Positions 15,617 through 31,612 of a stretch of DNA of 37,073 nt are shown one piece after another (the first letter of the stretch is position 1; each line of letters opens with the position of its first letter). Origin of the DNA: a bacterium (GTDB lineage Bacteria; Sysuimicrobiota; Sysuimicrobiia; Sysuimicrobiales; Kaftiobacteriaceae); contig DASUAK010000036.1 in the NCBI GenBank assembly GCA_035763845.1, positions 1 to 37,073 of the forward strand. Reading direction: 5' to 3'. Made by a program: the position numbers and the translations under genes. The notes beneath the pieces are model-generated. The model did not search any database. It was not told the origin of the DNA and saw only the letters and a program-made list of their open reading frames with translations.

Positions 15617-16260
15617 GCACCTTCTGGATCCTGCTGCGCAAGGACCTCGCCGTCGAGGGCAGGGGACGGGAGATGCTTCCGGCGATGGCGCTGCTCGCCC
15701 TGCTGCTGCTCGCTCTCACAGGCGCCTCCGGCCTCCGCCTGGACGGCGCGCCCGCCATCCTCTGGATCACAGTGGCGGTGGCCGCGGCGAGCGGGCTGGG
15801 GCGCAGCTTCCTCCGGGAGACCGACCAGGACCAGCTGCAGGGCCTGCACCTGGCCGCGGTCGATCCCGCCGTGCTCTACCTCGCGAAGGCCGCGGCGAAC
15901 TTCCTCATCGTCGCCGTGGTGGAGCTCGTCGCCGTGGCGGCGATCTTCGTCTTCTTCGATGCGCCGCCGCCGGCGGACGCGGGCGCGCTCGCCGCGGTGC
16001 TCCTCCTCGGCACCGCGGCCCTGGTCAGTCTGGGGACGCTGCTGGGCGGGATGCTCGCCGCCGCGCGCATGCGCGAGGCGCTGCTGCCCCTGCTGCTGCT
16101 CCCGCTCGGGGCGCCGGCCGTGATGGCGGCCTCCGGGGCGACGGCGCGGCTCCTCACCTCCGGCGGCTCCGCCGCCGGCGAGATCCGGCTTCTGCTCGCC
16201 TTCACCCTGTTGTTCGTCGCGGCCTCGGTGCTCGTCTTCGAGCACGTCATCGAGGAGTAG
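15613..16260 (+). CDS. ccmB: haem exporter membrane protein CcmB
   Basis: 215 aa and 6-TM-like. N-terminus LLRKDLAVEGRGREML is typical of CcmB. ATGA overlap with ccmA. Confidence 0.85.
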   Translation: MSTFWILLRKDLAVEGRGREMLPAMALLALLLLALTGASGLRLDGAPAILWITVAVAAASGLGRSFLRETDQDQLQGLHLAAVDPAVLYLAKAAANFLIVAVVELVAVAAIFVFFDAPPPADAGALAAVLLLGTAALVSLGTLLGGMLAAARMREALLPLLLLPLGAPAVMAASGATARLLTSGGSAAGEIRLLLAFTLLFVAASVLVFEHVIEE

Positions 16261-16281
16261 CCCCGGCAGGCGCCGAAGCCG

Positions 16282-16944
16282 ATGATTCCGGGGGTTATGC
16301 GGATGCTGCTGGTGCTGGCTGCCGTCGCCGTTCCCGTCGGCCTCGCGCTCGCGCTGTTCGTCGCTCCGGTGGAAGCGTTCCAGGGTGAGCCGTACCGCAT
16401 CCTGTACGTCCACGTGCCGAGCGTCGCCACAGCCTACCTCGCCTTCACGGTGACGTTCGCGGCGAGCGTGGCCTACCTCATCACGCGCCGCGGACGCTTC
16501 GACCGGTTGGCCGGCGCCTCCGCGGAGATCGGGCAGGTGTTCCTCACCGTCGTGCTGCTGACGGGGCCGATCTGGGGGAAGCCGGTGTGGGGCGTGTGGT
16601 GGACCTGGGACGCGCGCCTGACCACGGCGCTGATCCTCTGGTTCATCTTCGCGGGGTACCTCATGCTGCGCGCCTGGTCCGGTGCGCAGGGGGCGAGGGC
16701 GGCCGCGGTCGTCGCCATCGTCGGATTCCTCGACGTGCCGCTGATCCACTGGTCCGCTGTGCTGCTGCGGACCCTCCATCCCCGGCCCACGGTCTTCCGG
16801 CCCGAGGGGCCGGCGCTGCCGGGGTCGATGCTCGTGGTGCTCCTCTTCAACATCGCGGCCTTCGTCCTCACCTATCTCGCCTTCCTCACGGTGCGCGTCC
16901 GCCAGGAGGCGGCCCGGGAGCAGCTGTCGCAGGCCGGGCCATGA
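16282..16944 (+). CDS. ccmC: haem exporter / haem-handling protein CcmC
   Basis: YVHVPSVATAYL and the Trp-rich WWD motif WGKPVWGVWWTWDARLTT. 220 aa. Confidence 0.9.
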   Translation: MIPGVMRMLLVLAAVAVPVGLALALFVAPVEAFQGEPYRILYVHVPSVATAYLAFTVTFAASVAYLITRRGRFDRLAGASAEIGQVFLTVVLLTGPIWGKPVWGVWWTWDARLTTALILWFIFAGYLMLRAWSGAQGARAAAVVAIVGFLDVPLIHWSAVLLRTLHPRPTVFRPEGPALPGSMLVVLLFNIAAFVLTYLAFLTVRVRQEAAREQLSQAGP

Positions 16945-17054
16945 CGTACGTCGCGGCGGCGTATCTCGTCACGGTCGGCATCCTCGGAGCGTACGCGCTC
17001 TCGCTCTGGCTCCGGCAGCGGTCGCTGCGCCGCCCGCGCGGGGACGGCCGGTGA
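16941..17054 (+). CDS. ccmD: small single-TM protein, CcmD-like
   Basis: ATG at 16941 forms an ATGA overlap with ccmC. The 37 aa MTYVAAAYLVTVGILGAYALSLWLRQRSLRR are one TM helix plus a basic tail. Position between ccmC and ccmE matches ccmD. The following gene starts with a GTGA overlap. Confidence 0.55.
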   Translation: MTYVAAAYLVTVGILGAYALSLWLRQRSLRRPRGDGR

Positions 17055-17440
17055 GGACCTCGCGGAAGCTGGTCGTCGGGCTGGCCGTGATCGTCGCGGC
17101 GATCGGCGCCGTCGCGTACAGCGGCATCCGCTCCGCCGCCGTGTACTACCTCACGCCCACCGAGTTCGCGGGCCGCGCCGACCTGCGATCGGCGCAGGTG
17201 CGGCTCGCGGGCACGGTGGAGGCGGGCACCGTCCGCCGCGACGGCGGGCGGGTCACCGGCTTCCGTCTCAGCGACGGCACCACGGCGATCGACGTCCGCT
17301 ACGGCGGTCCGCTGCCCGACCTCTTCGCGGAGGGCCGCGAGGTCCTCGTCGAAGGGCGCCTCCGGGACGGCGCGCTCGATGCGACGAGGGTCATCACCAC
17401 CCACCCCACCGAATACAAGGAAGGATCTCCCCGGCCGTGA
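17051..17440 (+). CDS. ccmE: cytochrome c haem chaperone CcmE
   Basis: 129 aa. N-terminal TM anchor, AVYYLTPTEF, an OB-fold-like body, and the C-terminal HxxxY haem-binding motif (THPTEY). Confidence 0.85.
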   Translation: MRTSRKLVVGLAVIVAAIGAVAYSGIRSAAVYYLTPTEFAGRADLRSAQVRLAGTVEAGTVRRDGGRVTGFRLSDGTTAIDVRYGGPLPDLFAEGREVLVEGRLRDGALDATRVITTHPTEYKEGSPRP

Positions 17441-19437
17441 CGGCCCTTGGAAGCTTCGCCCTGTACGCCGCACTCGTCGTAACGCTCTACGGGCTGGCCG
17501 CCGGGATCCTGGGGCTGCGGCGACGCGATCCGGTGCTGCTCGAGTCGTCACGCCGCGCCGTCGCGGGATGGGCGGGGTGCATCGCCCTGGCTGCGGCCGC
17601 GCTCCTGTACGCGCTGGTCACGCGGGACTTCTCCATCCGGTTCGTCGCGGAGACGACCAGAGCCGACCTTCCGCTGCTCTATGCCGTGACGGCCTTCTGG
17701 GGCGGGCACGCCGGCTCGCTGCTGCTGTGGGCCCTGGTCCTCGCGCTCTACGGCGCGGTCGCCGCCTCATCCGGCCTGCGGCGCCTGCCGGCGGCGCCCA
17801 TCGTCTTCCTGGTGCTGCTCGGCACCGCGGCGTTCTTCACGCTGATCCTCGCCGCCTCCGGCAACCCCTTCGAGGCGCTGCGCATCCCGCCGCCGGACGG
17901 TCGGGGGCTCAACCCGCTCCTCCGCAATCCGTGGATGGCCGCGCATCCACCCGCGCTGTACCTCGGGTTCGTGGGGACGACGGTGCCGTTCGCTCTGGCT
18001 GTCGCGGCGCTCGCCTCCGGCGATCCGGACGGCGCCACCCTCCGCGCGGCGCGTCCCTGGGTCCGTCTCGGCTGGCTCTTCCTCACGGTGGGGCTGCTCT
18101 TCGGCGCGAAGTGGTCGTACGTCGTGCTGGGGTGGGGCGGCTATTGGGCCTGGGATCCTGTCGAGAACGCGGCGCTGATGCCCTGGCTGACCGGCGCGGC
18201 GTACCTGCACTCGGTCCAGGTCTTCGAGCGCGACGGCACGCTCCGCCGCTGGACCGCCGGCCTGCTGATGCTCTCCTTCGCGCTGGCCATCCTCGGCACG
18301 TTCCTGACGCGCAGCGGCGTGCTCAGCTCGGTCCACGCCTTCGCCAACTCGAGCGTCGGGCCGTACTTCGTGGTGTTCCTCGCGTTTTTGGTCGCCGGAT
18401 CGGCCGCCCTGCTCCTCCGACGGCGCCGGGATGCCGGCGCCGCGGATGCCGGCGCCGGCGGGCAGATCGATTCCCTGCTCAGCCGCGAGGCCGCCTTCCT
18501 CGCCAACAACGTGCTGCTCGTCACCGCCGCGGGCGCGGTGCTGCTCGGCACGCTCTTCCCCATCCTGGCCGAGGTCGTGACGGGCGATCGCATCAACGTC
18601 GGTCCCCCGTACTTCAACCAGGTGTTGCTGCCCGTCGTCGTCCTGCTGCTGCTCCTCATGGCGGTCGGCCCGCTGCTGTCCTGGCGCCGCTCCGACCCGC
18701 GCGAGATGGGCGTGCTGCTGGCCGCGCCCGGGGCGCTCGGTGCGCTGGCCGCCCTAGGGGGGGCGGCTCTGGGTATCCGCCATCCGGCTGCACTGCTCAT
18801 CGGGGCCCTCTGCGTCTTCACCGCGGCCGCGACGGTGGTGGAGGCCGGCCGCGGCGCGGAGGTCCGCCGGCGGCGCGGTGATGCCCTGCCGGTGGCGCTG
18901 GTCCGGGTCGCCGCCCGGGCGCGGACGCGCTACGGGGGCTACCTCGTGCACCTCGGGCTCCTCATCATGCTTGCCGGCATCACGGGGTCTTCCGTCTTCA
19001 CGACGCAGACACAGACCGCCCTTCGGCCCGGCGAGCGCGTGCGCCTCGGTCGCTACGAGGTGCGTTACGATGAGGTCAGCGCCGTCGAGGGAGCCGGCCT
19101 CACGGTGACGGCGGCGGCGCTCACCGCCTTCGACGGGCGGGGCGCGGTGTCGCTCGAGGCGCGGCACGTGCACCACCGCGCGCAGGATGCGATCACGGCC
19201 GAGGTGGCGATCCACAGCACGTGGCGCGACGACTTGTACGTGGTGCTGATCGGGTTGTCCGGCGACCGTCGCGCGACGTTCCGCATCCTCCTGAACCCCA
19301 TGGTCGCCTGGCTGTGGGCGGGGGCGGCGCTCATGGTCGCCGGCGGGACGATCGCGGCGCTCCCGGCCCGCCGCCGGGTGTCGCCGGGCGTCCTGGAGGA
19401 CGCCCGGCAGAGCGCGCAGCCGGAGTTGGTCAGATGA
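17437..19437 (+). CDS. ccmF: cytochrome c haem lyase subunit CcmF
   Basis: 666 aa and polytopic. WWD motif WGGYWAWDPVENAALMPWL. GTGA overlap with ccmE. Confidence 0.95.
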   Translation: MTALGSFALYAALVVTLYGLAAGILGLRRRDPVLLESSRRAVAGWAGCIALAAAALLYALVTRDFSIRFVAETTRADLPLLYAVTAFWGGHAGSLLLWALVLALYGAVAASSGLRRLPAAPIVFLVLLGTAAFFTLILAASGNPFEALRIPPPDGRGLNPLLRNPWMAAHPPALYLGFVGTTVPFALAVAALASGDPDGATLRAARPWVRLGWLFLTVGLLFGAKWSYVVLGWGGYWAWDPVENAALMPWLTGAAYLHSVQVFERDGTLRRWTAGLLMLSFALAILGTFLTRSGVLSSVHAFANSSVGPYFVVFLAFLVAGSAALLLRRRRDAGAADAGAGGQIDSLLSREAAFLANNVLLVTAAGAVLLGTLFPILAEVVTGDRINVGPPYFNQVLLPVVVLLLLLMAVGPLLSWRRSDPREMGVLLAAPGALGALAALGGAALGIRHPAALLIGALCVFTAAATVVEAGRGAEVRRRRGDALPVALVRVAARARTRYGGYLVHLGLLIMLAGITGSSVFTTQTQTALRPGERVRLGRYEVRYDEVSAVEGAGLTVTAAALTAFDGRGAVSLEARHVHHRAQDAITAEVAIHSTWRDDLYVVLIGLSGDRRATFRILLNPMVAWLWAGAALMVAGGTIAALPARRRVSPGVLEDARQSAQPELVR

Positions 19438-20093
19438 GGTCGATGCTTGTCGCCATTGTCATTGCGCTCGCGCCGATCGCTGCAGCTGCGGCGCCATCGC
19501 CGCCGGCACCGCCGGGGGTGGACATCGGCCTCCTCCTGCTCGCCGTCGACGCGAAGCGCGATCATCTGCGCGTCTCCGAAGCGCTGCGGCTGAGCAACAC
19601 CGGTCCGGCCCGGACGCTCGAGCTGCGCGTCCCGCTGCCGGAAGGGGCCGCGTATCTCGCCGTGCATCGCGGGATCGAGCGGTGGCTGCGCACCGCCGGC
19701 GGGTTCACCGCGGTCCTGCGCGTGCCCGCGGGCATTTCCGAGGTGGCGTACAGCTACGCGCTGCCGAGCGGACGCACCGCGGTGATGATCCGCTCCTTCC
19801 CGCTGCGCGTGCAGCGGCTGGAGGTCGTAGCGCGCGGGCGCGGGGTGGGGCTCGAGCTCGACGGCGGCGGGCCCGTCGACGCCGTTCTCCTGGGCGCCGA
19901 AACACTGCCGCGGTGGGAGGTCCGGGCGCTGCCGGCGGGCGAGCCGGTCACGATCCTGCTCGATCGTCTCCCCGTTTCGCATCCGTGGCTCCCCGCCGCG
20001 GGCGCGTCCGGGATCGCCGTGGTCCTGGGGACAGGGCTGATCAGGCACCTCCGCCGTGGCCCGCCGCCGGGGGAGGAGACCTCCAGCCGGTGA
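19434..20093 (+). CDS. hypothetical exported protein with C-terminal TM anchor (no Cys)
   Basis: ATG at 19434 forms an ATGA overlap with ccmF. Signal-like N-terminus MRSMLVAIVIALAPIAAAAA, then a beta-rich body, then a C-terminal hydrophobic helix plus RHLRRG. No CxxC and no recognisable family. Confidence 0.55.
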   Translation: MRSMLVAIVIALAPIAAAAAPSPPAPPGVDIGLLLLAVDAKRDHLRVSEALRLSNTGPARTLELRVPLPEGAAYLAVHRGIERWLRTAGGFTAVLRVPAGISEVAYSYALPSGRTAVMIRSFPLRVQRLEVVARGRGVGLELDGGGPVDAVLLGAETLPRWEVRALPAGEPVTILLDRLPVSHPWLPAAGASGIAVVLGTGLIRHLRRGPPPGEETSSR

Positions 20094-21013
20094 AAGAACC
20101 CATAGTGCTTGGTATGTTGGGTCCCACCCGCCCGCTGTTCGCCCTGCTGGTGACCGGGTCACTGTTCGCTGCCGCGTGCCAGCCGACGGTCAACATCTCC
20201 CGCGCCACGGCGCGCGTCGCATCACCCGGACCGGCGCCGGCCGAGGAGCGCCTGGTGCCGGTGCGCCCCTCCGCGATCGAGGGACGGCGCGTCTTCCAGC
20301 GGGCGCAGTGCGTGGTCTGCCACGGGCCGGAGGGCCTGGGCAACGGCCCGGCCGCGGCGAACCTGAAGTCCCCCGGCAAGAATCTGATGACCGACTTCTT
20401 CCGCCTGCTCGGGATCCGCCTCCGGGGTGAGCAGCTGCCCAGCCGTCCCGCGAACTTCCACAACACGGTGGCGATGCGGCTGAACAGCCCGTTCAGCATG
20501 TACGAGACGGTGACGCGCGGCCGGCCGCACACCGCGATGCCCGCCTTCCCGCCGCGGGGCGGCAAGCCCGCGTACGGCGCGAGCTCCTTCGGCGTGAACC
20601 TCACGGACGCGGAGCGGTGGCACGTTATCTTCCACGAGTGGACCTACCAGAGCACGCCGGCGGAGATCCGGACCGGCCGGCGGCTCTACGAGACGAAGCG
20701 GATCGCCGTGGAGGGCACGGCGCTGACCTGCGCCTCCTGCCACGGGACGGCGGGCGATGGGCGCGGGCCGCGCGGGGCGGAGCTCTCCCGCGAGCTGTGG
20801 CACTGGGCGCGCGGGCAGGGCCCCGGTATCTTCACCGACATCAACCTGATGGCGCAGCGCAAGCCCACCGAGCTGTACCAGGCCATCATCGACGGCCGCG
20901 GGCGGATGCCGGCCTACCGCGGCAAGCTCACCGAAGAGGAGCTGTGGGCGCTGGTCAACTACCTCTACACCTTCGTCTACGACTACCCGTGGGAGGAGGG
21001 GGCCGGGCGGTGA
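20090..21013 (+). CDS. dihaem c-type cytochrome, probable lipoprotein
   Basis: Two CxxCH motifs (CVVCHG, CASCHG), each followed by a Met-ligand context (TAMPAF, GRMPAY). Lipobox-like LFAAAC. Start is either GTG 20090 (GTGA overlap) or ATG 20114. Confidence 0.85.
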   Translation: MKEPIVLGMLGPTRPLFALLVTGSLFAAACQPTVNISRATARVASPGPAPAEERLVPVRPSAIEGRRVFQRAQCVVCHGPEGLGNGPAAANLKSPGKNLMTDFFRLLGIRLRGEQLPSRPANFHNTVAMRLNSPFSMYETVTRGRPHTAMPAFPPRGGKPAYGASSFGVNLTDAERWHVIFHEWTYQSTPAEIRTGRRLYETKRIAVEGTALTCASCHGTAGDGRGPRGAELSRELWHWARGQGPGIFTDINLMAQRKPTELYQAIIDGRGRMPAYRGKLTEEELWALVNYLYTFVYDYPWEEGAGR

Positions 21014-21063: not shown

Positions 21064-21732
21064 ATGGATGAGACCTCGTCGCCGCAGCTGAAGCGCCGCG
21101 CCTTCCTCAAGGCGGCCACGGCCGTGCCGGTTGTGGCCGCCCTGGGGGCGCTTGCGTCCCCGCTGCTGCGGCTGCTGAAGCCGAACGTGCCGAAGATGGG
21201 CGTGCTCGCCCCCACGGCGCAGGACGTGGCCCGGGGCGAGGTCACCGTGGCCGCCACCCTGGCGGACCTGCGGCAGCCCTGGGACTACAAGTACTTCGTC
21301 TTCACGCAGCGCTACCCGCAGTACACGTCCGATGGGTTCAAGACCGCCAACGTCCCCGGTGTGGCCATCCGGCTGCCGTACAAGATCCGGCTCCCCCTGG
21401 CCTGGGCGCAGACGATCGGCAAGGAGCCCAAGGTGACGGAGAGCGACATCGTCGTCTTCTCGCGCATCTGCCCGCACCTGGGCTGCATCTACAACTACGT
21501 CCCGAACTGGCGCGAGGTCAGCGCGGGCTACGGGGGCTATGTGCCGCCGCAGCAGCGCCAGCACGCCCTGCTGGCCTGCCCGTGCCACCTCAGCATCTAC
21601 GATCCCGCGGACCAGGCCCAGCCCGGCCGCGTTCTCTCCGGACCCGCGCCGCGCCCGCCCCGGACCTTCCTCTTCGAGCTCCAGGGCGAGCGGATCGTCG
21701 TCACCGACGTCGAGCCGGGCGGGATCGCCTGA
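21064..21732 (+). CDS. qcrA: Rieske [2Fe-2S] iron-sulfur protein with Tat signal
   Basis: Twin-arginine motif KRRAFLKAATAV. Cluster boxes CPHLGC and CPCHLS, including both extra disulfide cysteines. 222 aa. Confidence 0.9.
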   Translation: MDETSSPQLKRRAFLKAATAVPVVAALGALASPLLRLLKPNVPKMGVLAPTAQDVARGEVTVAATLADLRQPWDYKYFVFTQRYPQYTSDGFKTANVPGVAIRLPYKIRLPLAWAQTIGKEPKVTESDIVVFSRICPHLGCIYNYVPNWREVSAGYGGYVPPQQRQHALLACPCHLSIYDPADQAQPGRVLSGPAPRPPRTFLFELQGERIVVTDVEPGGIA

Positions 21733-21737: not shown

Positions 21738-22877
21738 ATGTGGGACCGCCTGCGCGACTGGACCCGCGAGCGCCGCGAGAAGCTCGACCTCTTCGACGAG
21801 ACGCTGGTGGCCCGCCAGGCCAACCCGATGTTCCTGCTGGGGCCGCTGCTCTACTACTTCTGGATGATCACCGTGGTCAGCGGCGTCGTGCTGATGATCT
21901 GGTACGAGCCGACGACCACCGGGGCGTTCAGCTCCATCGACCGCATCCAGCACGAGGTGCCGCTGGGCTGGCTTATCCGCGGGCTGCACAAGTACGCCGC
22001 GGACGGCGTGATCGTGACGATCATCCTGCGGATCTACCGGATGTACTTCCTCGGGGAGTACAAGAAGCCGGGCGAGCTGTCCTGGATCCTCGGCTTCCTG
22101 GGCCTGATCCTGGCGATGATCTCCGGGATCACCGGCTACCTGCTGATCTGGAACCAGCGCGCCTTCTGGGCGGCGAAGACGGTGCTCACCGTGCCGGTGT
22201 ACTTCGACGAGATCCCCGTGCTCGGGCCGATGGGCTTCGGCTCGATGATCGCCTACATCTTCCTGGGCGGGCCGGCCGTGGGCCAGGCCACGATCACGCG
22301 CTTCTACGCCCTGCACTTCGGGATCTCACTCGTCCTGTTGATCCTGATCGAGGTCTTCTTCCAGCGCACGCGGCGCAAGCGCATCAGCATGTCGCTGCTG
22401 CCGATGATCCTCTTCCTCGTGATGCTGGTCGTGATCAGCTACGTCCTGCCCGCCGAGTCCGGCCGGCGCGCCGACCCGACGCGCACGCCGCTGCCCATCC
22501 TCTCGGACTGGTACTTCCTGGCCCTGTACCAGTACGTCAAGTACACGCCCCCGCTGTGGGCGGGCCTCGGGCCGGGGCTGCTCATCGGTTTCGGCATGCT
22601 CGTGCCGTTCCTCGATCGCAGCAAGGGCCGCCGGCCGCTGGAGCGCCCGTTCTTCTTCGTCGTCGGCGTCATGGCGCTGCTGTACTTCCTGGTCTTCACG
22701 GTGCTGATCTTGTTCAACATCGCGGTGATCGAGCGCGAGCCGTTCATCGTCATGAACCTCACGCTGCTCGTACTGGCCGCGGCCCTGGTCTGGGAGGTCC
22801 GCCACCGCCGCCGCCGGCGCGCCCTGGCCGCCCGGCCGCCCGCTCCGGCGCCGGGACGCGCCGCGGCGCACGGCTGA
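21738..22877 (+). CDS. qcrB: cytochrome b (fused b6 + subunit-IV-like, 379 aa), variant lacking both n-side haem His ligands
   Basis: ATG at 21738. WLIRGLHKYAADG (helix B), ITGYLLIWNQRAFWAAK and ITRFYALHFG (helix D) are cytochrome b/b6 signatures. PILSDWYF occupies the PEWY position. Confidence 0.9.
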   Translation: MWDRLRDWTRERREKLDLFDETLVARQANPMFLLGPLLYYFWMITVVSGVVLMIWYEPTTTGAFSSIDRIQHEVPLGWLIRGLHKYAADGVIVTIILRIYRMYFLGEYKKPGELSWILGFLGLILAMISGITGYLLIWNQRAFWAAKTVLTVPVYFDEIPVLGPMGFGSMIAYIFLGGPAVGQATITRFYALHFGISLVLLILIEVFFQRTRRKRISMSLLPMILFLVMLVVISYVLPAESGRRADPTRTPLPILSDWYFLALYQYVKYTPPLWAGLGPGLLIGFGMLVPFLDRSKGRRPLERPFFFVVGVMALLYFLVFTVLILFNIAVIEREPFIVMNLTLLVLAAALVWEVRHRRRRRALAARPPAPAPGRAAAHG

Positions 22878-22878: not shown

Positions 22879-23139
22879 GTGCGAGTCCTCTCGATGGTCG
22901 GGGCCTTCATCGTGGCGATGTGGGCGGTCGGCGGGGGATGGGCGGCCCTGCGCGGGGTCTGGTCGTCCCCCACGGCCGCGGGGGGTGCGGCGGTCGCCGC
23001 GTACACTGCCGCCTTCCTGGCTGCGTTCATCTATCTGGCCTTCTGGGTCTACGCCGCCGACCGGGCCGCGGGCAAGGTCCGGCGGCCGATCGGGCTGTAC
23101 GAGCGCATCCTGAACCGGAGGGGTCCGGGGCATGCGTAG
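22879..23139 (+). CDS. hypothetical small membrane protein (2 TM)
   Basis: GTG at 22879, 1 nt after the cytochrome b stop (or ATG 22894). 86 aa with two hydrophobic helices. GC3-rich frame. No homology recognised. Confidence 0.4.
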   Translation: MRVLSMVGAFIVAMWAVGGGWAALRGVWSSPTAAGGAAVAAYTAAFLAAFIYLAFWVYAADRAAGKVRRPIGLYERILNRRGPGHA

Positions 23140-23332
23140 CGCCTACGCGCTGGGCATCGTGCTGCTGTCAGCGCTCGCCCTGCTGTTCGCGGTGGGGATC
23201 GTCTACGGCGAGATCGGCGACCGCTGGTTCTTCGGCGGCGGCATGATCGGAGCGCTGCTGCTGGCCTACTCCTTTATCGTCCTGTTCCTGCGGAAGTTGG
23301 GGATCATCGGGCCACGGAAGGCGGAGCGATGA
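23132..23332 (+). CDS. hypothetical small membrane protein (2 TM)
   Basis: ATG at 23132 overlaps the previous ORF by 8 nt. 66 aa with two clear TM helices (ALGIVLLSALALLFAVGIVY, MIGALLLAYSFIVLFL). Its stop overlaps the next start (ATGA). Confidence 0.45.
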   Translation: MRSAYALGIVLLSALALLFAVGIVYGEIGDRWFFGGGMIGALLLAYSFIVLFLRKLGIIGPRKAER

Positions 23333-24537
23333 GTCTGACGGCGGGCGCCCCCAGGCCGGCGGAGGCACCGCGCGGGCGGTACGGCCGCGCCATGACGGCG
23401 CTGCTGCGCGGCACCCTGCGGCTGGACGTTCTCATCAACAAGCTGTATCCGACCGACTACAACCCGCTCTACTACACGGGCGGGCTGGCCAACCTCTTCC
23501 TGTTCGTGCTGGTGCTCTCCGGCATCTTCCTCTTCTTCTACTATGAAGCGAGCCTCGGCGGGGCGTTTGCCTCGGTCCGCTACATCACGGAGGGCGTGCC
23601 CTACGGGGGCATCATCCGCGGCATCCACCGCTACGCGGCGGACGGCTTCATCGTGGCGGTCCTGCTGCACCTGTTCCGCAACTGGTTCACCGACCGCTAC
23701 CTCTTCAGCCGCGACAACCCCTGGATCTCGGGGATGTTCCTGCTCGCCTTCGGCGGGTTCGTGGGCTTCACCGGCTACCAGCTCGTCTGGGACGAGCGGG
23801 CGCAGGTTCTGACCAGCCTGTTCCTCGGCATGCTGCGCAGCATCCCCTGGGCGGGCGAGGCGCTGGCCCGCGCGTTCCTCGGCGGCGGGGGGGTGGGGGA
23901 CAGCACGCTGGTGCGCGTCCTCTTCCTGCACGTCGCGCCGGCCTCGGTGCTGTACGTGCTGCTCTGGTGGCACTACACGCGCGTCCGCCATCCGAAGATC
24001 TGGCCGCCCGCGGTGTGGGTCCTGCTCTGCCTGGGCCTGGTCTTCCTGCTGGCCGGCGCGCTGCCGGCCACCAGCGGCCCGCCGGCCACCCCCGCCGGGC
24101 AGCCCGCGAGCTTCCCCATGGACGTCTTCTTCCTGCTGCCGTTCTGGCTGGTGAACTGGCTGCCCGCGGGCGCGGTCGTCTTCCTGCTCGCCGTCCTCCT
24201 CGTGCTCGGCTTCATCATCCCATACGCCGGAGCGCGCGAGCGGCCGGAGGGGATGGAGGTGCGCCACGCCGGCGTGGCCCAGGTCATCGACGGGAACTGC
24301 ACCGGCTGCGAGCTGTGCTACTTCGACTGCCCGTACAACGCCATCGTGATGGCGTCCTCGCCGGCGCCGGGGCTGTCGCGGGCCGCGGCCAACCGCACCC
24401 TGCTGGCTGTCGTCCTCGAGTCGCGCTGCGTGGAGTGCGGGATCTGCATCGGGGCCTGCCCCTTCGAGGCGCTCGAACTGCCGCGCTTCCTGGAGCGCGA
24501 CGTGAAGCAGCTCGTCGCGGAGGCGGTGGGGGCATGA
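23329..24537 (+). CDS. cytochrome b (four-His, dihaem type) fused to a C-terminal 2x[4Fe-4S] ferredoxin domain
   Basis: IIRGIHRYAADGFIVAVLLHLFRNWF has H100/H114 and VLFLHVAPASVLYVLLWWH has H201/H215, both at canonical 14-residue spacing. FTGYQLVWDERA is also cytochrome b-like. Two more TM helices follow. The C-terminal domain carries CTGCELCYFDCP and CVECGICIGACP (CxxCxxCxxxCP twice). Confidence 0.85.
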   Translation: MSLTAGAPRPAEAPRGRYGRAMTALLRGTLRLDVLINKLYPTDYNPLYYTGGLANLFLFVLVLSGIFLFFYYEASLGGAFASVRYITEGVPYGGIIRGIHRYAADGFIVAVLLHLFRNWFTDRYLFSRDNPWISGMFLLAFGGFVGFTGYQLVWDERAQVLTSLFLGMLRSIPWAGEALARAFLGGGGVGDSTLVRVLFLHVAPASVLYVLLWWHYTRVRHPKIWPPAVWVLLCLGLVFLLAGALPATSGPPATPAGQPASFPMDVFFLLPFWLVNWLPAGAVVFLLAVLLVLGFIIPYAGARERPEGMEVRHAGVAQVIDGNCTGCELCYFDCPYNAIVMASSPAPGLSRAAANRTLLAVVLESRCVECGICIGACPFEALELPRFLERDVKQLVAEAVGA

Positions 24538-24992
24538 GCGCCTTCCCGAAGGTCGTCGGATTCGTGTGCGACTGGAGCGTCGATCTGACGCCTCTGCTGG
24601 ACGGCGGAGCGCTGCGCGACGTGCCCGGCGTGCGGATCATCCGCGTGCCGTGCTCGGGGTTCATACGCCCGAGCTGGCTCGAGGACGCGCTGTCCGGCGG
24701 GGCCGACGGCGTCTTCGTCACGGGCTGCCCCTACGGAGACTGCCTGAACCGCGAAGGCAACTACCTCATGCGCGACCGGATCGACCAGCTGCAGCGCCGC
24801 CTGGTTCGCCGGCGGACGGATCCGGCCCGGCTGGGCATGCTCGCGCACGGGCTGCACGACGGGGACGCCTTCCTGGCCGAAGTGCGCGAGTTCGTCCGGC
24901 GGCTGGAGGCGCTGGCGGCCGCGCCGCCCGCCTCCGCCGGGCGCCCCGCGCGTGCGGCCAAGCCGGCTCCGGCGGAGGGAGACCCGGCGTGA
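24534..24992 (+). CDS. MvhD/FlpD-like iron-sulfur protein (methyl-viologen-reducing hydrogenase delta-subunit family)
   Basis: ATG at 24534 forms an ATGA overlap with the upstream stop. VVGFVCDWS...VRIIRVPCSGFIRPSWLEDALSGGADGVFVTGCPYGDCLNREGNYLMRDR matches the FlpD/MvhD domain pattern with its four conserved Cys. No signal peptide. Ala/Pro-rich tail. Confidence 0.75.
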   Translation: MSAFPKVVGFVCDWSVDLTPLLDGGALRDVPGVRIIRVPCSGFIRPSWLEDALSGGADGVFVTGCPYGDCLNREGNYLMRDRIDQLQRRLVRRRTDPARLGMLAHGLHDGDAFLAEVREFVRRLEALAAAPPASAGRPARAAKPAPAEGDPA

Positions 24993-25096
24993 AGCGGCTG
25001 CCCCCCAAGGTCATCGCGGCCTACGTCCTTTACTACATCCTCTGGTTCCTGCTGCTGACGTTCGTGGCCTCATTCGGTTTGATCGCCGAGACCTGA
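24989..25096 (+). CDS. possible 35-aa single-TM peptide
   Basis: GTG at 24989 forms a GTGA overlap with the upstream stop. VKRLPPKVIAAYVLYYILWFLLLTFVASFGLIAET is a basic N-terminus plus one TM helix. Supported only by coupling and hydrophobicity. Confidence 0.3.
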   Translation: MKRLPPKVIAAYVLYYILWFLLLTFVASFGLIAET

Positions 25097-25133: not shown

Positions 25134-25532
25134 ATGCGTCATCGTGTGGTCCTGGCAGGACTGCTCCTGTTCGCTGCGGGCCTGGCGGTCGCCTGCGGGC
25201 CCGGGGGCGGCGGGGGGCAGGGCGGCGGCGAAGGACAGCCGGGCGGCGGCGGGACCGGCGGAGCCGGCGGGACGGTGAACGTCACGGAGAGCGAGTGGGC
25301 GATCCGCATTCCGGCCGACGTGCCCTCCGGTAAGGTCACCTTCACCGTCAAGAACGACGGGGCCGTGGAGCACAACTTCGTCATCCAGGAGACCAGCCAG
25401 CGCCTGGACGGGATCCAGCCCGGACAGACGAAGACCATCCAGGCCACGCTGCAGCCGGGTACGTATACCGTCGTGTGCGACATCCCCGGGCACAGCGAGG
25501 CCGGGATGACGACCACGATGACCGTCAAGTAA
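25134..25532 (+). CDS. type-1 copper cupredoxin (plastocyanin/auracyanin-like), probable lipoprotein with Gly-rich tether
   Basis: GGAGGAGGG SD upstream. Signal plus LAVAC lipobox-like site, then GPGGGGGQGGGEGQPGGGGTGGAGG as a linker. T1-Cu ligand pattern H (VEHNF) ... C-x2-PGH-x3-GM (VVCDIPGHSEAGM). Confidence 0.85.
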   Translation: MRHRVVLAGLLLFAAGLAVACGPGGGGGQGGGEGQPGGGGTGGAGGTVNVTESEWAIRIPADVPSGKVTFTVKNDGAVEHNFVIQETSQRLDGIQPGQTKTIQATLQPGTYTVVCDIPGHSEAGMTTTMTVK

Positions 25533-25602: not shown

Positions 25603-26574
25603 ATGGACCTGAGCCGGATCTACGCTCCCATCACGGACGATCTCGACCGGCTGCAGGTGCTGCTCGAGCGTGAGCTCATCACGCCCGACCCCTTCATCGG
25701 GGAGCTCGTCCACCACGTCCTGCAGACGCCCGGAAAGCTGATCCGCCCGGCGTTGGTCTGCCTCTCCGCCCAGGCCGCAGGCGGTGCCGGGGAAACGCGC
25801 CTGTGGATCGCCGCGGCCGTCGAGTTGATCCATGTCGCCTCGCTGATCCACGACGACATCATCGACGACGCGGACACGCGCCGCAGCGCCCCCACCGTGA
25901 ACGTGCGCTGGGGGAATCAGATCGCGGTCCTCCTGGGCGACTACCTCTTCGCCAAGGCCTTCGATCTCCTCAGCCGTGTGCGCAGCACCGAGGTGGCCCT
26001 CGCCCTGGCCCGGGCGTCGGTGGAGATGAGCCAGGCCGAGATCCTCCAGATCAAGTACGGCGCGGAGCCGCACGATGACGAGACCGTCTACCTGCGCATC
26101 ATCGGCGGGAAGACGGCCCATCTCTTCTCCGCCGCCTGCCGCGCCGGCGCCCTGGCCGCCGGCAGCGCCGCCGCCGCTGAGGCGCTCGGCGACTTCGGGA
26201 TGCAGTGGGGGATGGCGTTCCAGATCACGGACGACGCCCTCGACCTGACCAGCCGGGCGGAAGCTCTGGGCAAGCCGATCCACAGCGACATCCGCGGCGG
26301 GAAGGTCACGCTGCCCCTCATCCACACCCTGCGCGCGGCCGCGCCCGACGACCGCGCCCGCCTGTTCTCCCTGCTCGGCTCTGGCGCCCCGCTCGACGGG
26401 CAGCTCGCCGAGGTGGAGGCCCTCCTCACCCGCTATCACGGCGTCGAGTACGCGCTCCGCGAGGCGGGGGCCTACTCCCGCCGGGCGGAGGCCGCCCTCG
26501 ACGTGCTGCCTGCCACGCCCGCCCGGGACAGCCTGCGCGCCCTCACCGAGTTCGTCGTCGTCCGCTCGCGGTAG
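25603..26574 (+). CDS. trans-polyprenyl diphosphate synthase (hepta/octaprenyl type, IspB/HepT family)
   Basis: First Asp-rich motif LIHDDIIDDADTRR and second FQITDDALD. 323 aa. Confidence 0.9.
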   Translation: MDLSRIYAPITDDLDRLQVLLERELITPDPFIGELVHHVLQTPGKLIRPALVCLSAQAAGGAGETRLWIAAAVELIHVASLIHDDIIDDADTRRSAPTVNVRWGNQIAVLLGDYLFAKAFDLLSRVRSTEVALALARASVEMSQAEILQIKYGAEPHDDETVYLRIIGGKTAHLFSAACRAGALAAGSAAAAEALGDFGMQWGMAFQITDDALDLTSRAEALGKPIHSDIRGGKVTLPLIHTLRAAAPDDRARLFSLLGSGAPLDGQLAEVEALLTRYHGVEYALREAGAYSRRAEAALDVLPATPARDSLRALTEFVVVRSR

Positions 26575-26579
26575 CGTCC

Positions 26580-27554
26580 GTGCCCGCTCCGGTCGCCGTC
26601 ACGGGGGCAGGAGGCTTCGTCGGGAGCCGCCTCGTCCGACGTCTGCGCGGCGCGGGCACGGCGGTGCGGGCCGTCATCCGCGCCGCCCGGGATGCGGAGC
26701 CGCTGCGGGCCCTCGGCTGCGAGGTGGCCGTGGCGGACGTGACGGACCGGGCCGCTCTCGCCGCGGCCTTCTCCGGATGCCGGGCGGCCGTGCACCTCGC
26801 GGCCATCATCAGGGAGCGGGACGGGCTCACTTTCGACGCCGTCAACCATCAAGGAGCGGCGAACGCCGCGGCGGCCGCGGCCGCCTCCGGCATCGGGCGG
26901 TTCGTCCATCTGAGCGCGCTCAGGGCCTCGCCCGAGGCGGCGCGCTACCTCCGCTCCAAGTGGCAGGGTGAGGAGGCGGTGCGGCGCAGCGGCCTGCCGG
27001 CCGTGATCTTCCGGCCGTCCGTCCTCCTCGGTCCCGGGGGCGGGGCCGCGGCGCAGTTCGCGGACGTCGTGCGGTACGGGCTCTGGTATCCGGTGGTGGG
27101 CGGGCGTGTGCCGGGGCGCCGCCTGGCCGGAACGCTGGCCGCGCTCACGCCGTTCGTGCCGGTGCTCGGAGACGGGCGGTACACCTCGATGCCGGTTGCC
27201 CTCGACGACGTCCTGCCCGCCGTCGCGGCCGCCCTCGAGCGTGACGACGTGCTGGGCGGTACCTTCGAGATCGGGGGGCCGGAGGTCCTGACCTACGACG
27301 AGCTGGTCAGGCGGGTGGCGGCGGTGCTGGGGCTGCGGCGCGTCCTGTGGCACCTGCCCATGCCCGCGGCCCGGGGGCTGCTGCGCCTCTTCGCGCTGCT
27401 GCCCGACCCGCCGATCACCCGGGACGAGTTCGACGCGCTGCTCGTCGACAACGTGTGCGATCCAGCTCCGGCCGTCCGCGCTTTCGGGCTCCGGCTACGG
27501 CCGGTCGAGCAGGCGCTGCGCGAGGCGCTCACCCCGTCCGGGGAGAAAACGTAG
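26580..27554 (+). CDS. SDR-family NAD(P)-binding protein (atypical epimerase/NmrA/NDUFA9-like)
   Basis: GTG at 26580. VAVTGAGGFVGSRLVRRL is a Rossmann GxxGxxG motif. About 324 aa. The ORF-track start at 26205 overlaps the previous gene and is rejected. Confidence 0.75.
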   Translation: MPAPVAVTGAGGFVGSRLVRRLRGAGTAVRAVIRAARDAEPLRALGCEVAVADVTDRAALAAAFSGCRAAVHLAAIIRERDGLTFDAVNHQGAANAAAAAAASGIGRFVHLSALRASPEAARYLRSKWQGEEAVRRSGLPAVIFRPSVLLGPGGGAAAQFADVVRYGLWYPVVGGRVPGRRLAGTLAALTPFVPVLGDGRYTSMPVALDDVLPAVAAALERDDVLGGTFEIGGPEVLTYDELVRRVAAVLGLRRVLWHLPMPAARGLLRLFALLPDPPITRDEFDALLVDNVCDPAPAVRAFGLRLRPVEQALREALTPSGEKT

Positions 27555-27584
27555 ATCAGACCACGTCACGTGTGGGAGGACGGC

Positions 27585-27983
27585 ATGAGCACGCAGACCG
27601 ACGGAGCCCCGGTCAGCGCCGGCACGCGGGCGGCCCGCATCGCGCAGAACGTCGCGGCGCTGTTCCGCCTGCGCCTGCAGGACGCGAGCGCCGACGTGAA
27701 GAGGTCCGTCCGGACGCTCGTCACCGGCGTGGTGCTCGGGCTGGTTGCGCTCGTTCTGGTCTTGATGGCCCTGCCCGTGCTGATCACGATGGTGATCCTG
27801 ATCCTGTCGATGTACATGCCGTCGTGGGCCGCCACCGGTGTCGTCCTGCTGAGCGTGCTGCTGGTCGCGGCCGGACTGCTGCTGGTCGCCCGGCGCCGCC
27901 TGCGGTGGGAGGGACCCAGCGTGATCGCGGATCTCAAAGCGGACTGGGCGGCGATCCGCGAAGGGCTGGAGGAGCGACGATGA
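27585..27983 (+). CDS. small membrane protein, holin-X (Phage_holin_3_6)-like family
   Basis: ATG at 27585 is preceded by GGGAGGA 4 nt upstream. Amphipathic N-terminus, two long TM helices, then RRRLRW. The pattern resembles the actinobacterial 'phage holin family protein'. By eye only. Confidence 0.5.
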   Translation: MSTQTDGAPVSAGTRAARIAQNVAALFRLRLQDASADVKRSVRTLVTGVVLGLVALVLVLMALPVLITMVILILSMYMPSWAATGVVLLSVLLVAAGLLLVARRRLRWEGPSVIADLKADWAAIREGLEERR

Positions 27984-28225
27984 GCCGCGTCCACGAGCAT
28001 CCTGAAGCGGCGCGTCTCCGCAGCGAGATCGCCGGGGACCTGGCCGCACTGAGACGGACGTTCCGCCGCCCCGCGGCGGCGATGATGCCGGTCGGCGACA
28101 TCCCGGATCAGGTCGGGCGCATGCTGCGCACCAACCCAGGTTGGGCCGCGGCGGCCGCCGCCGGCGCGCTGGCCGGACTGGCCTTCTCGGTGCGGAACCG
28201 TCTCAAGAAGACGCCCGTGGACTGA
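27980..28225 (+). CDS. hypothetical 81-aa protein with C-terminal TM helix (DUF3618-like?)
   Basis: ATG at 27980 forms an ATGA overlap with the upstream stop. Helical N-terminus, then GWAAAAAAGALAGLAF, then a basic tail. Confidence 0.4.
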   Translation: MSRVHEHPEAARLRSEIAGDLAALRRTFRRPAAAMMPVGDIPDQVGRMLRTNPGWAAAAAAGALAGLAFSVRNRLKKTPVD

Positions 28226-28259
28226 GCCGGAGGCCGCGTTCGCCCCGCCATCGCCCCGA

Positions 28260-28268
28260 TGCTATAAT
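28260..28268 (+). promoter_or_regulatory. extended -10 promoter element TGCTATAAT upstream of tatA
   Basis: A perfect TATAAT at 28263-28268 is preceded by TGn. GGAGGTG SD at 28275-28281 and ATG at 28286. The -35 is weak (TTCGCC). Confidence 0.45.
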
Positions 28269-28285
28269 CAGAGCGGAGGTGGGGC

Positions 28286-28468
28286 ATGCCCAACATCGGC
28301 TGGCCGGAGTTGATGGTGATCCTCATCATCGCGCTGTTGATCTTCGGACCGGCGCGCCTGGCGGGGATCGGCGGAGCGATGGGGCGGGCCATCCGGGAGT
28401 TCCGGGGGGCCGTCCGCGACGCCGAGAGCGAGATCGACAAGCCCGCGAACACCGAGAAGCGCACATAG
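28286..28468 (+). CDS. tatA: twin-arginine translocase subunit TatA/E
   Basis: 60 aa. ELMVILIIALLIFGPARLAGIGGAMGRAIREFR carries the TatA TM helix, hinge FGP and amphipathic helix signature. Confidence 0.9.
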   Translation: MPNIGWPELMVILIIALLIFGPARLAGIGGAMGRAIREFRGAVRDAESEIDKPANTEKRT

Positions 28469-28480
28469 ATCGCTGACCAG

Positions 28481-28530
28481 ACACGTTGGACTGCCGGGCG
28501 GAGGCTGCGGCCGTCCAACGTGTTTCGTTT
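28481..28530 (+). terminator. intrinsic terminator/attenuator-like hairpin between tatA and tatC
   Basis: An 11-bp perfect inverted repeat, ACACGTTGGAC (28481-28491) / GTCCAACGTGT (28513-28523), is followed by TTCGTTT. Confidence 0.5.
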
Positions 28531-28559
28531 GCCGGCCTCTGGATGAGACGGGTGGATGA

Positions 28560-29300
28560 ATGGAAGACCGGCCGATGACGATCATCGAGCACCTCGAGGA
28601 GCTGCGCCGGCGGCTCCTCATCGCCATCGTCGCCTTCGCTGCGGGCACCCTCGCCTCGTTCCTCTTCGTCGAGACGATCCTGGGCATCCTCATCCGGCCT
28701 GTCACCGCGGTAGGCGAACAGGTCGTGTTCCTGGCGCCCACGGAGGCGTTCTTCGTCCGCGTCAAGGTGGCCGCCCTCGCCGGCGTCCTGCTCAGCCTCC
28801 CCGTTGTCCTGTACCAAGTGTGGCGGTTCGTCTCGGTGGGGCTGACCCAGCGTGAGCGCCGCTCCACCGTGACGCTGCTCCCGGTCTCGCTGCTGCTCTT
28901 CGTGGCCGGCGGGGCGTTTGCGTTCTTCGCCATCCTGCCGGTGGGCGTCCGGTTCCTGCTGGGCTACCGGACCGAGGCCCTCGTGCCGATGATCTCGATC
29001 GGGGCCTACACCTCCTTCGCCACGGCCTTCGTCCTGTCGTTCGGTCTGGTCTTTCAGCTGCCGGTGGTCGTGCTCTTCCTGGCGCGGCTCGGCATCGTCA
29101 CGCCTGCCAGCCTCGCCCGCGGCCGCCGCTACGCGCTGCTGGGCATTGCCGCCATCTCGGCGGTCCTCACGCCCGGCGGGGATGTGGTCTCGATGGGGAT
29201 GATGGCCGTGCCCACCTACCTCCTCTACGAGATCAGCATCTGGGTGGCCCGCATCTTCGCCCCCGCGCCCGCGCGGCAGGAATCGCTTCCTGCGGACTGA
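28560..29300 (+). CDS. tatC: twin-arginine translocase subunit TatC
   Basis: 246 aa. IIEHLEELRRRLLIAIVAF N-terminus, six TM segments, and PGGDVVSM near the C-terminus are typical of TatC. Alternative start at ATG 28575. Confidence 0.9.
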   Translation: MEDRPMTIIEHLEELRRRLLIAIVAFAAGTLASFLFVETILGILIRPVTAVGEQVVFLAPTEAFFVRVKVAALAGVLLSLPVVLYQVWRFVSVGLTQRERRSTVTLLPVSLLLFVAGGAFAFFAILPVGVRFLLGYRTEALVPMISIGAYTSFATAFVLSFGLVFQLPVVVLFLARLGIVTPASLARGRRYALLGIAAISAVLTPGGDVVSMGMMAVPTYLLYEISIWVARIFAPAPARQESLPAD

Positions 29301-29360
29301 AACCCCCCACCTGGCGGTCCGCGCTCGCCGGCGGGCCGATCTCGACGCCTGGGGGGCGGG

Positions 29361-29630
29361 ATGCGGGCAGGCCGGCGTGCGCGCAGCCCATGGTGGATGC
29401 TGGCGATCGTGGTCAGCCTGGGGGCGATCCTCGGCATTGTGATCGGGGAAGCCGTGGCGGGCTACCGGGCGCTGGCCTTCCTCTCCCGCGATCTCCACGT
29501 CGGCGTGGATCCCCCCTTCACCGTCGACCTGAAGTTCCTCACCTTCACCTTGGGCTTCACCTTCCGTCTGAACCTCGCCGTGCCCATCGGCATCGTCGTC
29601 GCGGTCTGGATCTTTCGCCTCCTGCAGTAG
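29361..29630 (+). CDS. small membrane protein, DUF4321-like
   Basis: 89 aa. N-terminal TM helix, LKFLTFTLGFTFRLNLAVPIGIVVAVWIFRLL at the C-terminus, and a position upstream of radC-mreB. By eye only. Confidence 0.45.
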   Translation: MRAGRRARSPWWMLAIVVSLGAILGIVIGEAVAGYRALAFLSRDLHVGVDPPFTVDLKFLTFTLGFTFRLNLAVPIGIVVAVWIFRLLQ

Positions 29631-29736
29631 CCGCGCCCACCGGATGACCCAGGCGGGGGAGGTCCGGCGCATTGCCGCTCCCGCGCCCCGGCCGTATACT
29701 TGACGCGGCCGGCCCCAGGCCGGCGCGCGTCCCCCT

Positions 29737-30411: not shown

Positions 30412-30412
30412 C

Positions 30413-30429
30413 GGGCCGCTTCGGCGGCC
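30413..30429 (+). other. GC hairpin with TTCG tetraloop immediately after the radC stop
   Basis: GGCCGC-TTCG-GCGGCC read directly. A second GC-rich stem lies at about 30444-30468. No U-tract follows, so it could be a weak terminator or mreB leader structure. Confidence 0.25.

Positions 30430-30559: not shown

Positions 30560-31612
<1,053 letters not shown>

Follow-up and report, generated by a model that had tools for sequence, protein, structure and literature searches.

The DNA analysed here is a stretch of 37,073 nucleotides (nts), called the window below, which comprises positions 1 to 37,073 of contig DASUAK010000036.1 in assembly GCA_035763845.1, from a bacterium of the clade Candidatus Sysuimicrobiota (CSP1-3, often labelled 'Armatimonadetes'). 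It carries a gene cluster that encodes a dihaem c-type cytochrome, a Rieske [2Fe-2S] protein, a first cytochrome b (no. 1), two small membrane subunits (s1 and s2), a second cytochrome b (no. 2) with a fused ferredoxin domain (Fer4), an FlpD/MvhD-type iron-sulfur (Fe-S) protein and a third small subunit (s3), in this order (Table 1). An earlier interpretation made from the letters of the window alone, here called the sequence-only reading, had proposed that no. 1 lost both ligands of haem bH, the haem on the cytoplasmic (n) side of the membrane, and kept those of haem bL on the opposite (p) side. We found that this loss is conserved in a whole family of proteins, and that the reading had overlooked no. 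2, which we regard as the obligate companion of no. 1. The two cytochromes b may belong to one complex, and this proposal is weighed below against its alternatives.

Loss of the haem bH ligands in cytochrome b no. 1

Translation of 21738-22877 reproduced the protein and the codons quoted in the sequence-only reading, with Arg98 and Phe207/Phe208 as it had claimed. The protein contains five His residues in total (72, 84, 193, 356 and 378), and the statement that none occurs in residues 194-355 holds. It matched the Pfam family Cytochrome_B, the N-terminal four-helix haem domain (PF00033), with E = 1.3e-33 and 116.9 bits against a cut-off of 27.2, and Cytochrom_B_C, the C-terminal domain with the Qo (quinol oxidation site) motif (PF00032), with 29.2 bits against a cut-off of 20.7. 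In the HMMER alignment of no. 1 to a solved cytochrome b6 (6rqf; E = 2.9e-37), Arg98 stands in the column of a His that ligates haem bn (b6 'ilHvfrvy' versus 'ilRiyrmy'), and Phe207 in that of the second bn ligand. Two base changes are needed to turn CGG into a His codon (CAY), and two to turn TTC into one, and therefore single-base errors do not explain either substitution.

The AlphaFold2 (AF2) model of no. 1, with a predicted local distance difference test score (pLDDT) of 80.6 and a predicted template modelling score (pTM) of 0.81, has the eight-helix cytochrome b fold (helices A-H), and Foldseek aligned it to bc1 cytochrome b chains with template modelling scores of 0.67-0.71. In this model, helix B ends on the n side six residues away from Arg98, and helix C starts there six residues away from the Gly119 position. 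By its domains, fold, Qo motif and Rieske linkage, no. 1 is thus assigned to the Rieske/cytochrome b superfamily, but it lacks the set of four His that ligates bL and bH, as the bL pair His84/His193 alone is kept.

The conservation of these positions was determined with 85 orthologues of no. 1 from the fetched loci and with a canonical comparison set of 111 relatives outside the bH-less group, taken from 1.84 billion representatives at 50% identity. The search of these representatives returned about 24 clusters, 29-53% identical, with Arg (in one case Lys) in helix B, and the matches outside this group were canonical; position 98 was Arg or Lys in 24/24 family members versus His in 111/111 canonical sequences. 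Among the 120 closest homologues (75-100% identity, from many independent assemblies), none had His at either bH site, and Arg was found at position 98 in 116 of them, which are all those with a readable helix-B motif. In the 85 orthologues, position 98 was Arg in 84 and Lys in one, and position 207 was Phe in 37, Tyr in 30, Leu in 10, His in seven and Met in one. His84, His193 and Glu205 were invariant (85/85), and the two His are the only conserved His of the family. Inspection of the n-side half of the 85 orthologues gave no conserved Cys, nor any conserved Met or Lys placed to pair as a haem ligand.

The residues around the two haem positions were compared in the same way. In cytochromes b, space for the haems is provided by conserved Gly residues in helices A and C. 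The helix-C position 119 is Gly in 100% of the canonical sequences, and in the bH-less family it is Ala in 67% and Gly in 12%. The n-side position 112 is Arg in 95% of the canonical sequences and is lost in the bH-less family, being Gly in the window protein. The p-side residues Gly49, Gly133, Gln140, Trp144 and Asp257-Trp258-Tyr259 are kept in the no. 1 family, with Gly49, Gly133 and the Asp-Trp-Tyr of the Qo motif invariant (each of the latter three in 85/85 orthologues, preceded by Ser in 83/85). Arg101, the counterpart of the Arg three residues past the canonical bH ligand, is also invariant.

Taken together, these comparisons make it highly probable that the bH site has been lost in no. 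1, and they indicate a real, conserved cytochrome b that is predicted to hold one bis-His haem (bL). With bH lost, no. 1 would therefore have no Qi-type exit of its own. The claims of the sequence-only reading that no. 1 would be a mono-haem, bL-only cytochrome b and that a Q cycle within one of its monomers would be incompatible with this agree with the family-wide loss of the bH ligands, and its claim of a Qo site kept without a bH/Qi exit fits with the invariant Asp257-Trp258-Tyr259 and the Rieske gene immediately upstream. The same reading had asked whether orthologues share the Arg and Phe substitutions or show His in these columns, which would point to sequencing error; the ligand loss proved common to the family. 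An ion pair between Arg98 and Glu205 may occupy the former haem pocket.

Other ligands for a second haem were considered. His72, which the sequence-only reading had left as an option, did not stand up, as it lies on the p-side ab surface helix (residues 62-72 in the AF2 model) and is present in only 41/85 orthologues. A ligand from the small subunits was ruled out as well, there being no conserved His in them.

The cytoplasmic N-terminus of no. 1 carries a D-x-F-D-E motif (residues 17-21, window 21786-21800) that canonical cytochromes b lack; within the family, Asp20 and Glu21 are present in 84/85 orthologues. The Fe-S domain or FlpD might dock at this family-specific motif. In two divergent relatives, P0137 (L089 5894-7954) and P0141, the p-side loop between helices A and B contains a Lys/Glu-rich insertion of ~100-300 residues.

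The companion cytochrome b and the conserved gene cluster

Cytochrome b no. 2 comprises helices A-F with four haem ligands, His100, His114, His201 and His215, followed by the two Cys motifs of the ferredoxin domain, CTGCELCYFDCP (24298-24333) and CVECGICIGACP (24427-24462). The four His, Arg128, Gly135 and both CxxCxxCxxxCP motifs are conserved in at least 97% of 73 orthologues. Arg128 and Gly135 are the equivalents of the n-side Arg and the helix-C Gly lost by no. 1; no. 2 thus keeps every haem-bH feature, and the apparent defect of no. 1 becomes a division of labour. AF2 gave no usable single-chain model of no. 2 (pLDDT 47). From homology and hydropathy, the helix count places the ferredoxin domain on the cytoplasmic side, where it would lie beside haem bH. 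The ef-loop of no. 2 is a degenerate x-D-[WV]-F (residues 262-268, FPMDVFF) with Asp in 70/73 orthologues; this Asp may be vestigial or may mark a second p-side quinone site, in an operon with one Rieske gene. A homology search with no. 2 returned close relatives only (68-100% identity), and these had no functional names.

The FlpD protein aligned with MvhD of the Hdr-Mvh complex (5odc_D) with E = 6.7e-20, and the aligned Cys are the second Cys of CCxWC, the Cys of VxCSG and both Cys of GC…DC. Its cysteines C14, C42, C67 and C72 are conserved across 70 orthologues.

The genes of the cluster are tightly packed. Between the Rieske gene and s3, each of the six junctions is an overlap or a gap of at most 5 nt, and three of the overlaps are of the ATGA/GTGA type, so that the two cytochromes b are translationally coupled with their neighbors. 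The Rieske gene ends 5 nt upstream of no. 1, and the association with a Rieske gene is conserved in the related loci, as is the dihaem cytochrome c gene upstream of it; this cytochrome is the likely electron acceptor of the Rieske protein. The C-terminal motif of s1 was also found in the loci of Melainabacteria, Symbiobacterium and Fimbriimonadaceae. In three distant homologues (P0124, P0125 and P0130), s3 is fused to the C-terminus of no. 1; since s3 is encoded beyond FlpD in the window, these gene fusions are evidence for contact between s3 and no. 1, and together with the tight junctions they make a single assembly likely. The cupredoxin gene downstream may encode a periplasmic electron carrier, perhaps an alternative one, and its membership in the module is uncertain.

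A scan with one genome per species returned 80 loci, which came from Sysuimicrobiota (the window's clade, with up to 92% identity), an assembly of Symbiobacterium thermophilum, Anaerolineae, Fimbriimonadaceae and other Armatimonadota, and Melainabacteria/Vampirovibrio. Across these and loci L001-L006, the order was cytochrome c, Rieske, no. 1, small open reading frames (ORFs), no. 2::Fer4 and FlpD, here called type I, in every locus that extends far enough, except L035. The Melainabacteria/Vampirovibrio loci (L077 to L088, minus L078, L079 and L085) contain cytochrome c, Rieske, no. 1, no. 2::Fer4 and FlpD, with CcoNO where the upstream DNA suffices. Outside Sysuimicrobiota, every type I locus whose upstream DNA is long enough has the genes for CcoN-CcoO, a cbb3-type oxidase, immediately before the cluster.

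All fetched loci with enough flanking DNA, the divergent P0137 and P0144 included, encode no. 1 together with no. 2::Fer4 and FlpD. In P0144 (L091), the no. 2-type gene comes immediately after no. 1. A different order, here called type II, was found with P0137 (L089/L090; L089 946-8471): Rieske, no. 2::Fer4, FlpD and an Fe-S protein are followed by a flavoprotein module, no. 1, s1 and s2. The module consists of a ShyB/HydB/AsrA-like Fe-S subunit (1.4e-48) and then a HydG/AsrB-like subunit that binds FAD and NAD(P) (9nez_C, 2.5e-49). Type II operons belong to organisms of low G+C content, and the cytochrome c gene is not in the operon. P0138 (L007 1-2117) was considered as an exception without no. 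2 and FlpD and was rejected: its contig is cut inside a HydG-like gene (38% identity, E = 3e-46), and since this is the same gene, P0138 is also assigned to type II. The HydG-like subunit occurs only in these divergent relatives, L089, L090 and L007, and the operon of the window has no flavoprotein.

In one family of Sysuimicrobiota, FlpD/s3 is directly followed by a gene resembling those of haem-copper oxidases (24-26% identity to CcoN) and by a CcoO-like gene (loci L040, L042-L047, L060, L062 and L079; ~11350-13250 in the 17-kb loci); in other phyla they come before the module. The enzyme could be a divergent C-family oxidase or a nitric oxide reductase.

The window as a whole has a G+C content of 72%, and all ORFs with a gene-like codon-position G+C pattern are on the plus strand. 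A haem biosynthesis operon at 4-10375 includes genes for glutamyl-tRNA reductase, glutamate-1-semialdehyde aminotransferase, porphobilinogen deaminase, uroporphyrinogen-III synthase and 5-aminolaevulinate dehydratase besides those in Table 1; a set of this kind agrees with the coproporphyrin-dependent branch. Directly upstream of the cytochrome module lie the genes of cytochrome c maturation system I (CcmA, B, C, E and F; 14912-19437), as they do in the closest relatives, L002 and L003. Between CcmF and the dihaem cytochrome c lies an ORF of 194 amino acids (19509-20093) with a signal-like segment at its N-terminus and a hydrophobic one at its C-terminus; Pfam and NCBIfam gave no match for it, and L002/L003 have an unannotated ORF at this place. 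The region 25603-37072 holds housekeeping genes for a polyprenyl synthetase, an NAD-dependent epimerase-like protein, a holin-X-like protein, TatA, TatC, DUF4321, RadC, MreB, a penicillin-binding protein 2-type transpeptidase and RNase E/G, and the gene order downstream of the module is syntenic with L002/L003 up to MreB.

Table 1. Features of the window with their positions (aa, amino acids)
Feature	Position	Strand	Remarks
Cytochrome b no. 1 (bH-less)	21738..22877	+	379 aa, 8 transmembrane helices; bL ligands His84/His193; Qo motif S256-D-W-Y259; bH ligands replaced by Arg98, Phe207
His84 codon CAC	21987-21989	+	Checked base by base
Arg98 codon CGG, helix-B haem-bH ligand position	22029-22031	+	Checked base by base
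His193 codon CAC	22314-22316	+	Checked base by base
Glu205 codon GAG	22350-22352	+	Checked base by base
Glu205-Val-Phe207-Phe208, helix D	22350..22361	+	Phe207/Phe208 = TTC TTC, 22356-22361; position 207 is the bH ligand column
Qo motif SDWY, PDWY-type variant	22503..22514	+	Codon read-out
Dihaem c-type cytochrome, lipoprotein-like signal (…LFAAAC)	20114..21013	+	Pfam Cytochrome_CBB3/Cytochrom_C, two stretches
Rieske [2Fe-2S] protein, twin-arginine signal; boxes CPHLGC, CPCHLSIY	21064..21732	+	Pfam Rieske and TAT_signal; NCBIfam Rieske_proteo 1.7e-12
Small subunit s1, 86 aa, 2 transmembrane helices, cytoplasmic C-terminal motif (…YAADRAAGKVRRPIGLYERIL)	22879..23139	+	
Small subunit s2, 66 aa, 2 transmembrane helices	23132..23332	+	Second small two-helix ORF in the same place in related loci
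Cytochrome b no. 2 with C-terminal 2x[4Fe-4S] ferredoxin domain	23329..24537	+	Pfam; b6 alignment with both bn His
FlpD/MvhD-type iron-sulfur protein	24534..24992	+	Pfam FlpD (PF02662) 8.7e-27; MvhD match
Small subunit s3, 35-aa peptide with a single transmembrane helix, end …SFGLIAET	24989..25096	+	
Cupredoxin-type copper protein	25176..25532	+	Pfam Cupredoxin_1 3e-09; same position in L002/L003
Chlorite-dismutase-like (HemQ/ChdC-type) gene	5130-5810	+	
Radical-SAM gene	5807-6943	+	
Ferrochelatase	7980-8921	+	
Amine-oxidase-type HemY	8885-10375	+	

A possible two-cytochrome-b complex and its alternatives

In our proposal, the two cytochromes b are the halves of a heterodimer in a Rieske/cytochrome b complex with a bL-to-bL path and a cytoplasmic Fe-S wire, and we put the chances of this model at about even. 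Quinol would be oxidised at the Qo site of no. 1, and one electron would pass through the Rieske cluster and the dihaem cytochrome c to the terminal oxidase. The second electron would move from bL of no. 1 across the dimer interface to bL of no. 2, from there to the n-side haem bH of the same subunit, and by way of its 2x[4Fe-4S] domain to the [2Fe-2S] protein FlpD. The final acceptor would be cytoplasmic, in type II operons presumably the NAD(P)-linked flavoprotein; reduction of an n-side quinone on no. 2 is also possible. To our knowledge, bL of the other monomer is the only cofactor near enough for electron transfer between monomers in the solved bc complexes. Since a Qo site with an outlet-less bL cannot turn over cleanly, and bL-bL transfer is the only inter-monomer route, the heterodimer appears to be the most economical model. 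In engineered, cross-inactivated bc1 dimers, turnover is reportedly sustained by bL-bL electron transfer (PMC7908018, PMC4330944, PMC4152375). The linkage of CcoN-CcoO with the type I loci outside Sysuimicrobiota supports a respiratory role.

Ser and Tyr of the Rieske box II raise the potential in bc1 enzymes, and box II reads CPCH[LF]S[IV][YF] in the 80 related loci. A Qo motif of the PDWY type was associated with menaquinol by Kao and Hunte (PMC4122944), and for anammox bacteria it was argued that a high-potential Rieske protein combined with a low-potential quinol gives a strongly reducing bL (PMC12954380). The Ser and Tyr together with the PDWY-type motif hint at a high-potential Rieske protein, menaquinol and a strongly reducing bL in the present complex as well.

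Several observations weigh against the heterodimer with electron export. The type I operon, that of the window included, encodes no acceptor for FlpD, and electron transfer from the p side to the n side opposes the membrane potential, which limits how low the potential of a cytoplasmic acceptor can be. In L035, a no. 1-type gene (8001-9119, 73% identical to that of the window) has neither a cytochrome c nor a Rieske gene within 8 kb upstream; this locus ends 1 kb downstream and may hold a second copy or a rearrangement. Further points also speak for two modules in place of one complex, that is, for a homodimer of no. 1 which with the Rieske protein and cytochrome c would act as a linear quinol:cytochrome c oxidoreductase outside a Q cycle, its bL being a dead end or buffer, and for no. 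2::Fer4-FlpD as an independent Qmo-like quinone module, co-regulated or loosely attached. The conserved Asp in the x-D-[WV]-F of no. 2 makes a p-side quinone site of its own, and hence a separate module, possible, and the 150 best representatives included no protein in which no. 1 and no. 2 are naturally fused. Stand-alone proteins of the 'PDWF-FeS clade', with cytochrome b, 4Fe-4S and MvhD and without any Rieske partner, are on record, as is a Pyrobaculum cytochrome b also without a bH ligand (PMC4122944). On the other hand, the pairing of no. 1 and no. 2 persists over at least five phyla and two gene orders, and one would not expect unrelated modules to complement each other in what was lost and what was kept. 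The genes are also translationally coupled, and s3, from beyond FlpD, is fused to no. 1 in some lineages. A Qo site with an outlet-less bL would, by its chemistry, stall or leak electrons to oxygen. We therefore consider two separate modules rather unlikely.

The same pair of cytochromes b could also work with the Fe-S wire as the entry for electrons, from NAD(P)H through the HydG-like subunit of type II, or from ferredoxin or another protein through FlpD, to bH of no. 2, so that quinone would be reduced or the Qo site would run in reverse. The membrane potential favors electron flow from the n side to the p side, modules of the sulfhydrogenase beta/gamma type, to which those of the type II operons belong by family match, are known to be reversible with NAD(P)(H), and input of electrons from ferredoxin at the n side of b6f has been proposed and long discussed (PMC7908018). 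However, a cbb3-type oxidase and a dihaem cytochrome c are tightly linked with the type I operons, which speaks for quinol oxidation in the forward direction, the PDWY-like Qo motif differs from the APWY type that was connected with reverse operation (PMC4122944), and no donor is encoded in the type I operon; electron entry by this way is in our view unlikely. Much less probable is a second haem at the former bH site of no. 1 with unconventional ligation, either five-coordinate on residue 207 or with a ligand from another subunit. Position 207 is indeed Tyr in 30/85 and His in 7/85 orthologues, and Arg101 is invariant, but Phe occupies this position in the window protein and 36 other orthologues and Leu in 10, Arg98 is unable to ligate haem iron, the helix-C Gly that all canonical relatives have at the same membrane depth gave way to bulkier residues, Arg112 is lost, and the small subunits offer no conserved His. 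Finally, an assembly or sequencing artefact or a decaying pseudogene is refuted by the intact ORF, its G+C content of 0.98 at third codon positions and the two base changes per substitution; the same residues are seen in hundreds of assemblies made independently, and the rest of the protein shows strong purifying conservation.

Beyond the heterodimer as such, a wider claim may be made with more reserve, and we think it somewhat more likely to fail than to hold. According to it, no. 1 and no. 2 would constitute an obligate heterodimeric complex III whose turnover depends on bL-bL transfer, and the low-potential electron from Qo would be exported to the cytoplasm (to NAD(P)+ in type II) and not Q-cycled. 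Melainabacteria, Sysuimicrobiota and some Armatimonadota would use this heterodimer as their main complex III, and the 'b6f' ascribed to the ancestor of Cyanobacteria would be a misannotation.

The bH-less family breaks the invariant of four haem-ligating His in cytochrome b. These four axial ligands are treated as invariant, and at least one large evolutionary survey discarded sequences lacking one (PMC4122944), a practice that may explain why the family went unnoticed. According to a 2021 review, the physiological meaning of the bL-bL bridge 'remains unclear' (PMC7908018), and a natural complex that depends on bL-bL transfer, if the proposal is true, would be a direct test of the purpose of this bridge. 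It would also be the second case after anammox, built from different proteins, of a Rieske/cytochrome b complex wired to cytoplasmic Fe-S proteins and NAD(P), and would bear on quinone-based electron bifurcation. Locus L068 is assigned to Symbiobacterium thermophilum, and experiments may thus be practical, as this species has reportedly been studied in culture by Ueda and Beppu.

Comparison with known systems

Canonical bc1, b6f and Firmicute bc complexes resemble the present system in their Pfam domains, the eight-helix fold, the bL ligands, a PDWY-like Qo motif, a Rieske protein exported by the twin-arginine pathway, a c-type cytochrome and the linkage to an oxidase. They differ in that, here, the bH ligands, the helix-C Gly and the n-side Arg are lost from no. 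1, the second cytochrome b is not identical to the first, and there is a cytoplasmic Fe-S extension. The differences from b6f go further: no. 1 is a single polypeptide of 379 residues that spans both domains, whereas b6f has them split between b6 and subunit IV, and according to the alignment the column of b6 Cys35, which serves haem ci ('nifyClgg'), holds Leu in no. 1 ('npmfLlgp') and Thr in no. 2.

In a full-text literature search, no account was found of a cytochrome b without bH that has another cytochrome b as its partner, and the genome paper on Sysuimicrobiota does not mention complex III. The 'PDWF-FeS' clade of Kao and Hunte (2014; PMC4122944) has the same domain content as no. 2 plus FlpD and a related ef-loop, and we liken it to them by these two features. 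Its members in Magnetospirillum and Turneriella were reported without a Rieske gene in the cluster, whereas a Rieske protein and a cytochrome b that lacks bH always accompany the present proteins. The Pyrobaculum cytochrome b (PMC4122944) is alike in a loss of a bH His that suggests loss of the haem; it differs in being archaeal and confined to one genus, in that the second ligand alone was reported lost, and in that no partner cytochrome b was described. The Pyrobaculum loss appears to be an independent event.

The closest functional analogues are the Rieske/cytochrome b complexes of anammox bacteria (Kuenenia), in which the low-potential electron from Qo was proposed to go to a cytoplasmic acceptor rather than into a plain Q cycle (PMC12954380). 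Both systems have a Rieske/cytochrome b core and an n-side Fe-S chain that leads to FAD and NAD(P), and the type II operons L089/L090 follow the same logic. In contrast, the models of the anammox complexes show homodimers of a cytochrome b with two haems (PMC12954380), and here the haems would be split between two paralogues. The Fe-S wire of the present system is a ferredoxin domain fused to cytochrome b together with MvhD/FlpD, and the NAD(P) module is of the sulfhydrogenase beta/gamma-like kind where it is present, with none in the operon of the window.

The 'complex III/IV' cluster of Melainabacteria, annotated petB/petC (PMC6349859), appears to be the same gene family and operon as type I. 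The report reads it as subunits of cytochrome b6f beside a C-type oxidase and says nothing of the absent ligands, of the other cytochrome b or of the Fe-S proteins (PMC6349859). These homologues have been used in the discussion on the origin of cyanobacterial electron transport, and the present comparison suggests that they represent a different kind of complex.

The path proposed here is that of the cross-inactivated or fused bc1 dimers of the Osyczka laboratory, in which a working Qo site from one monomer reportedly acts with a working bH/Qi branch from the other, so that turnover relies on bL-bL electron transfer (PMC4330944, PMC4152375). Those dimers were engineered in the laboratory from a homodimeric enzyme, whereas the pair of no. 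1 and no. 2 would be a natural and widespread version.

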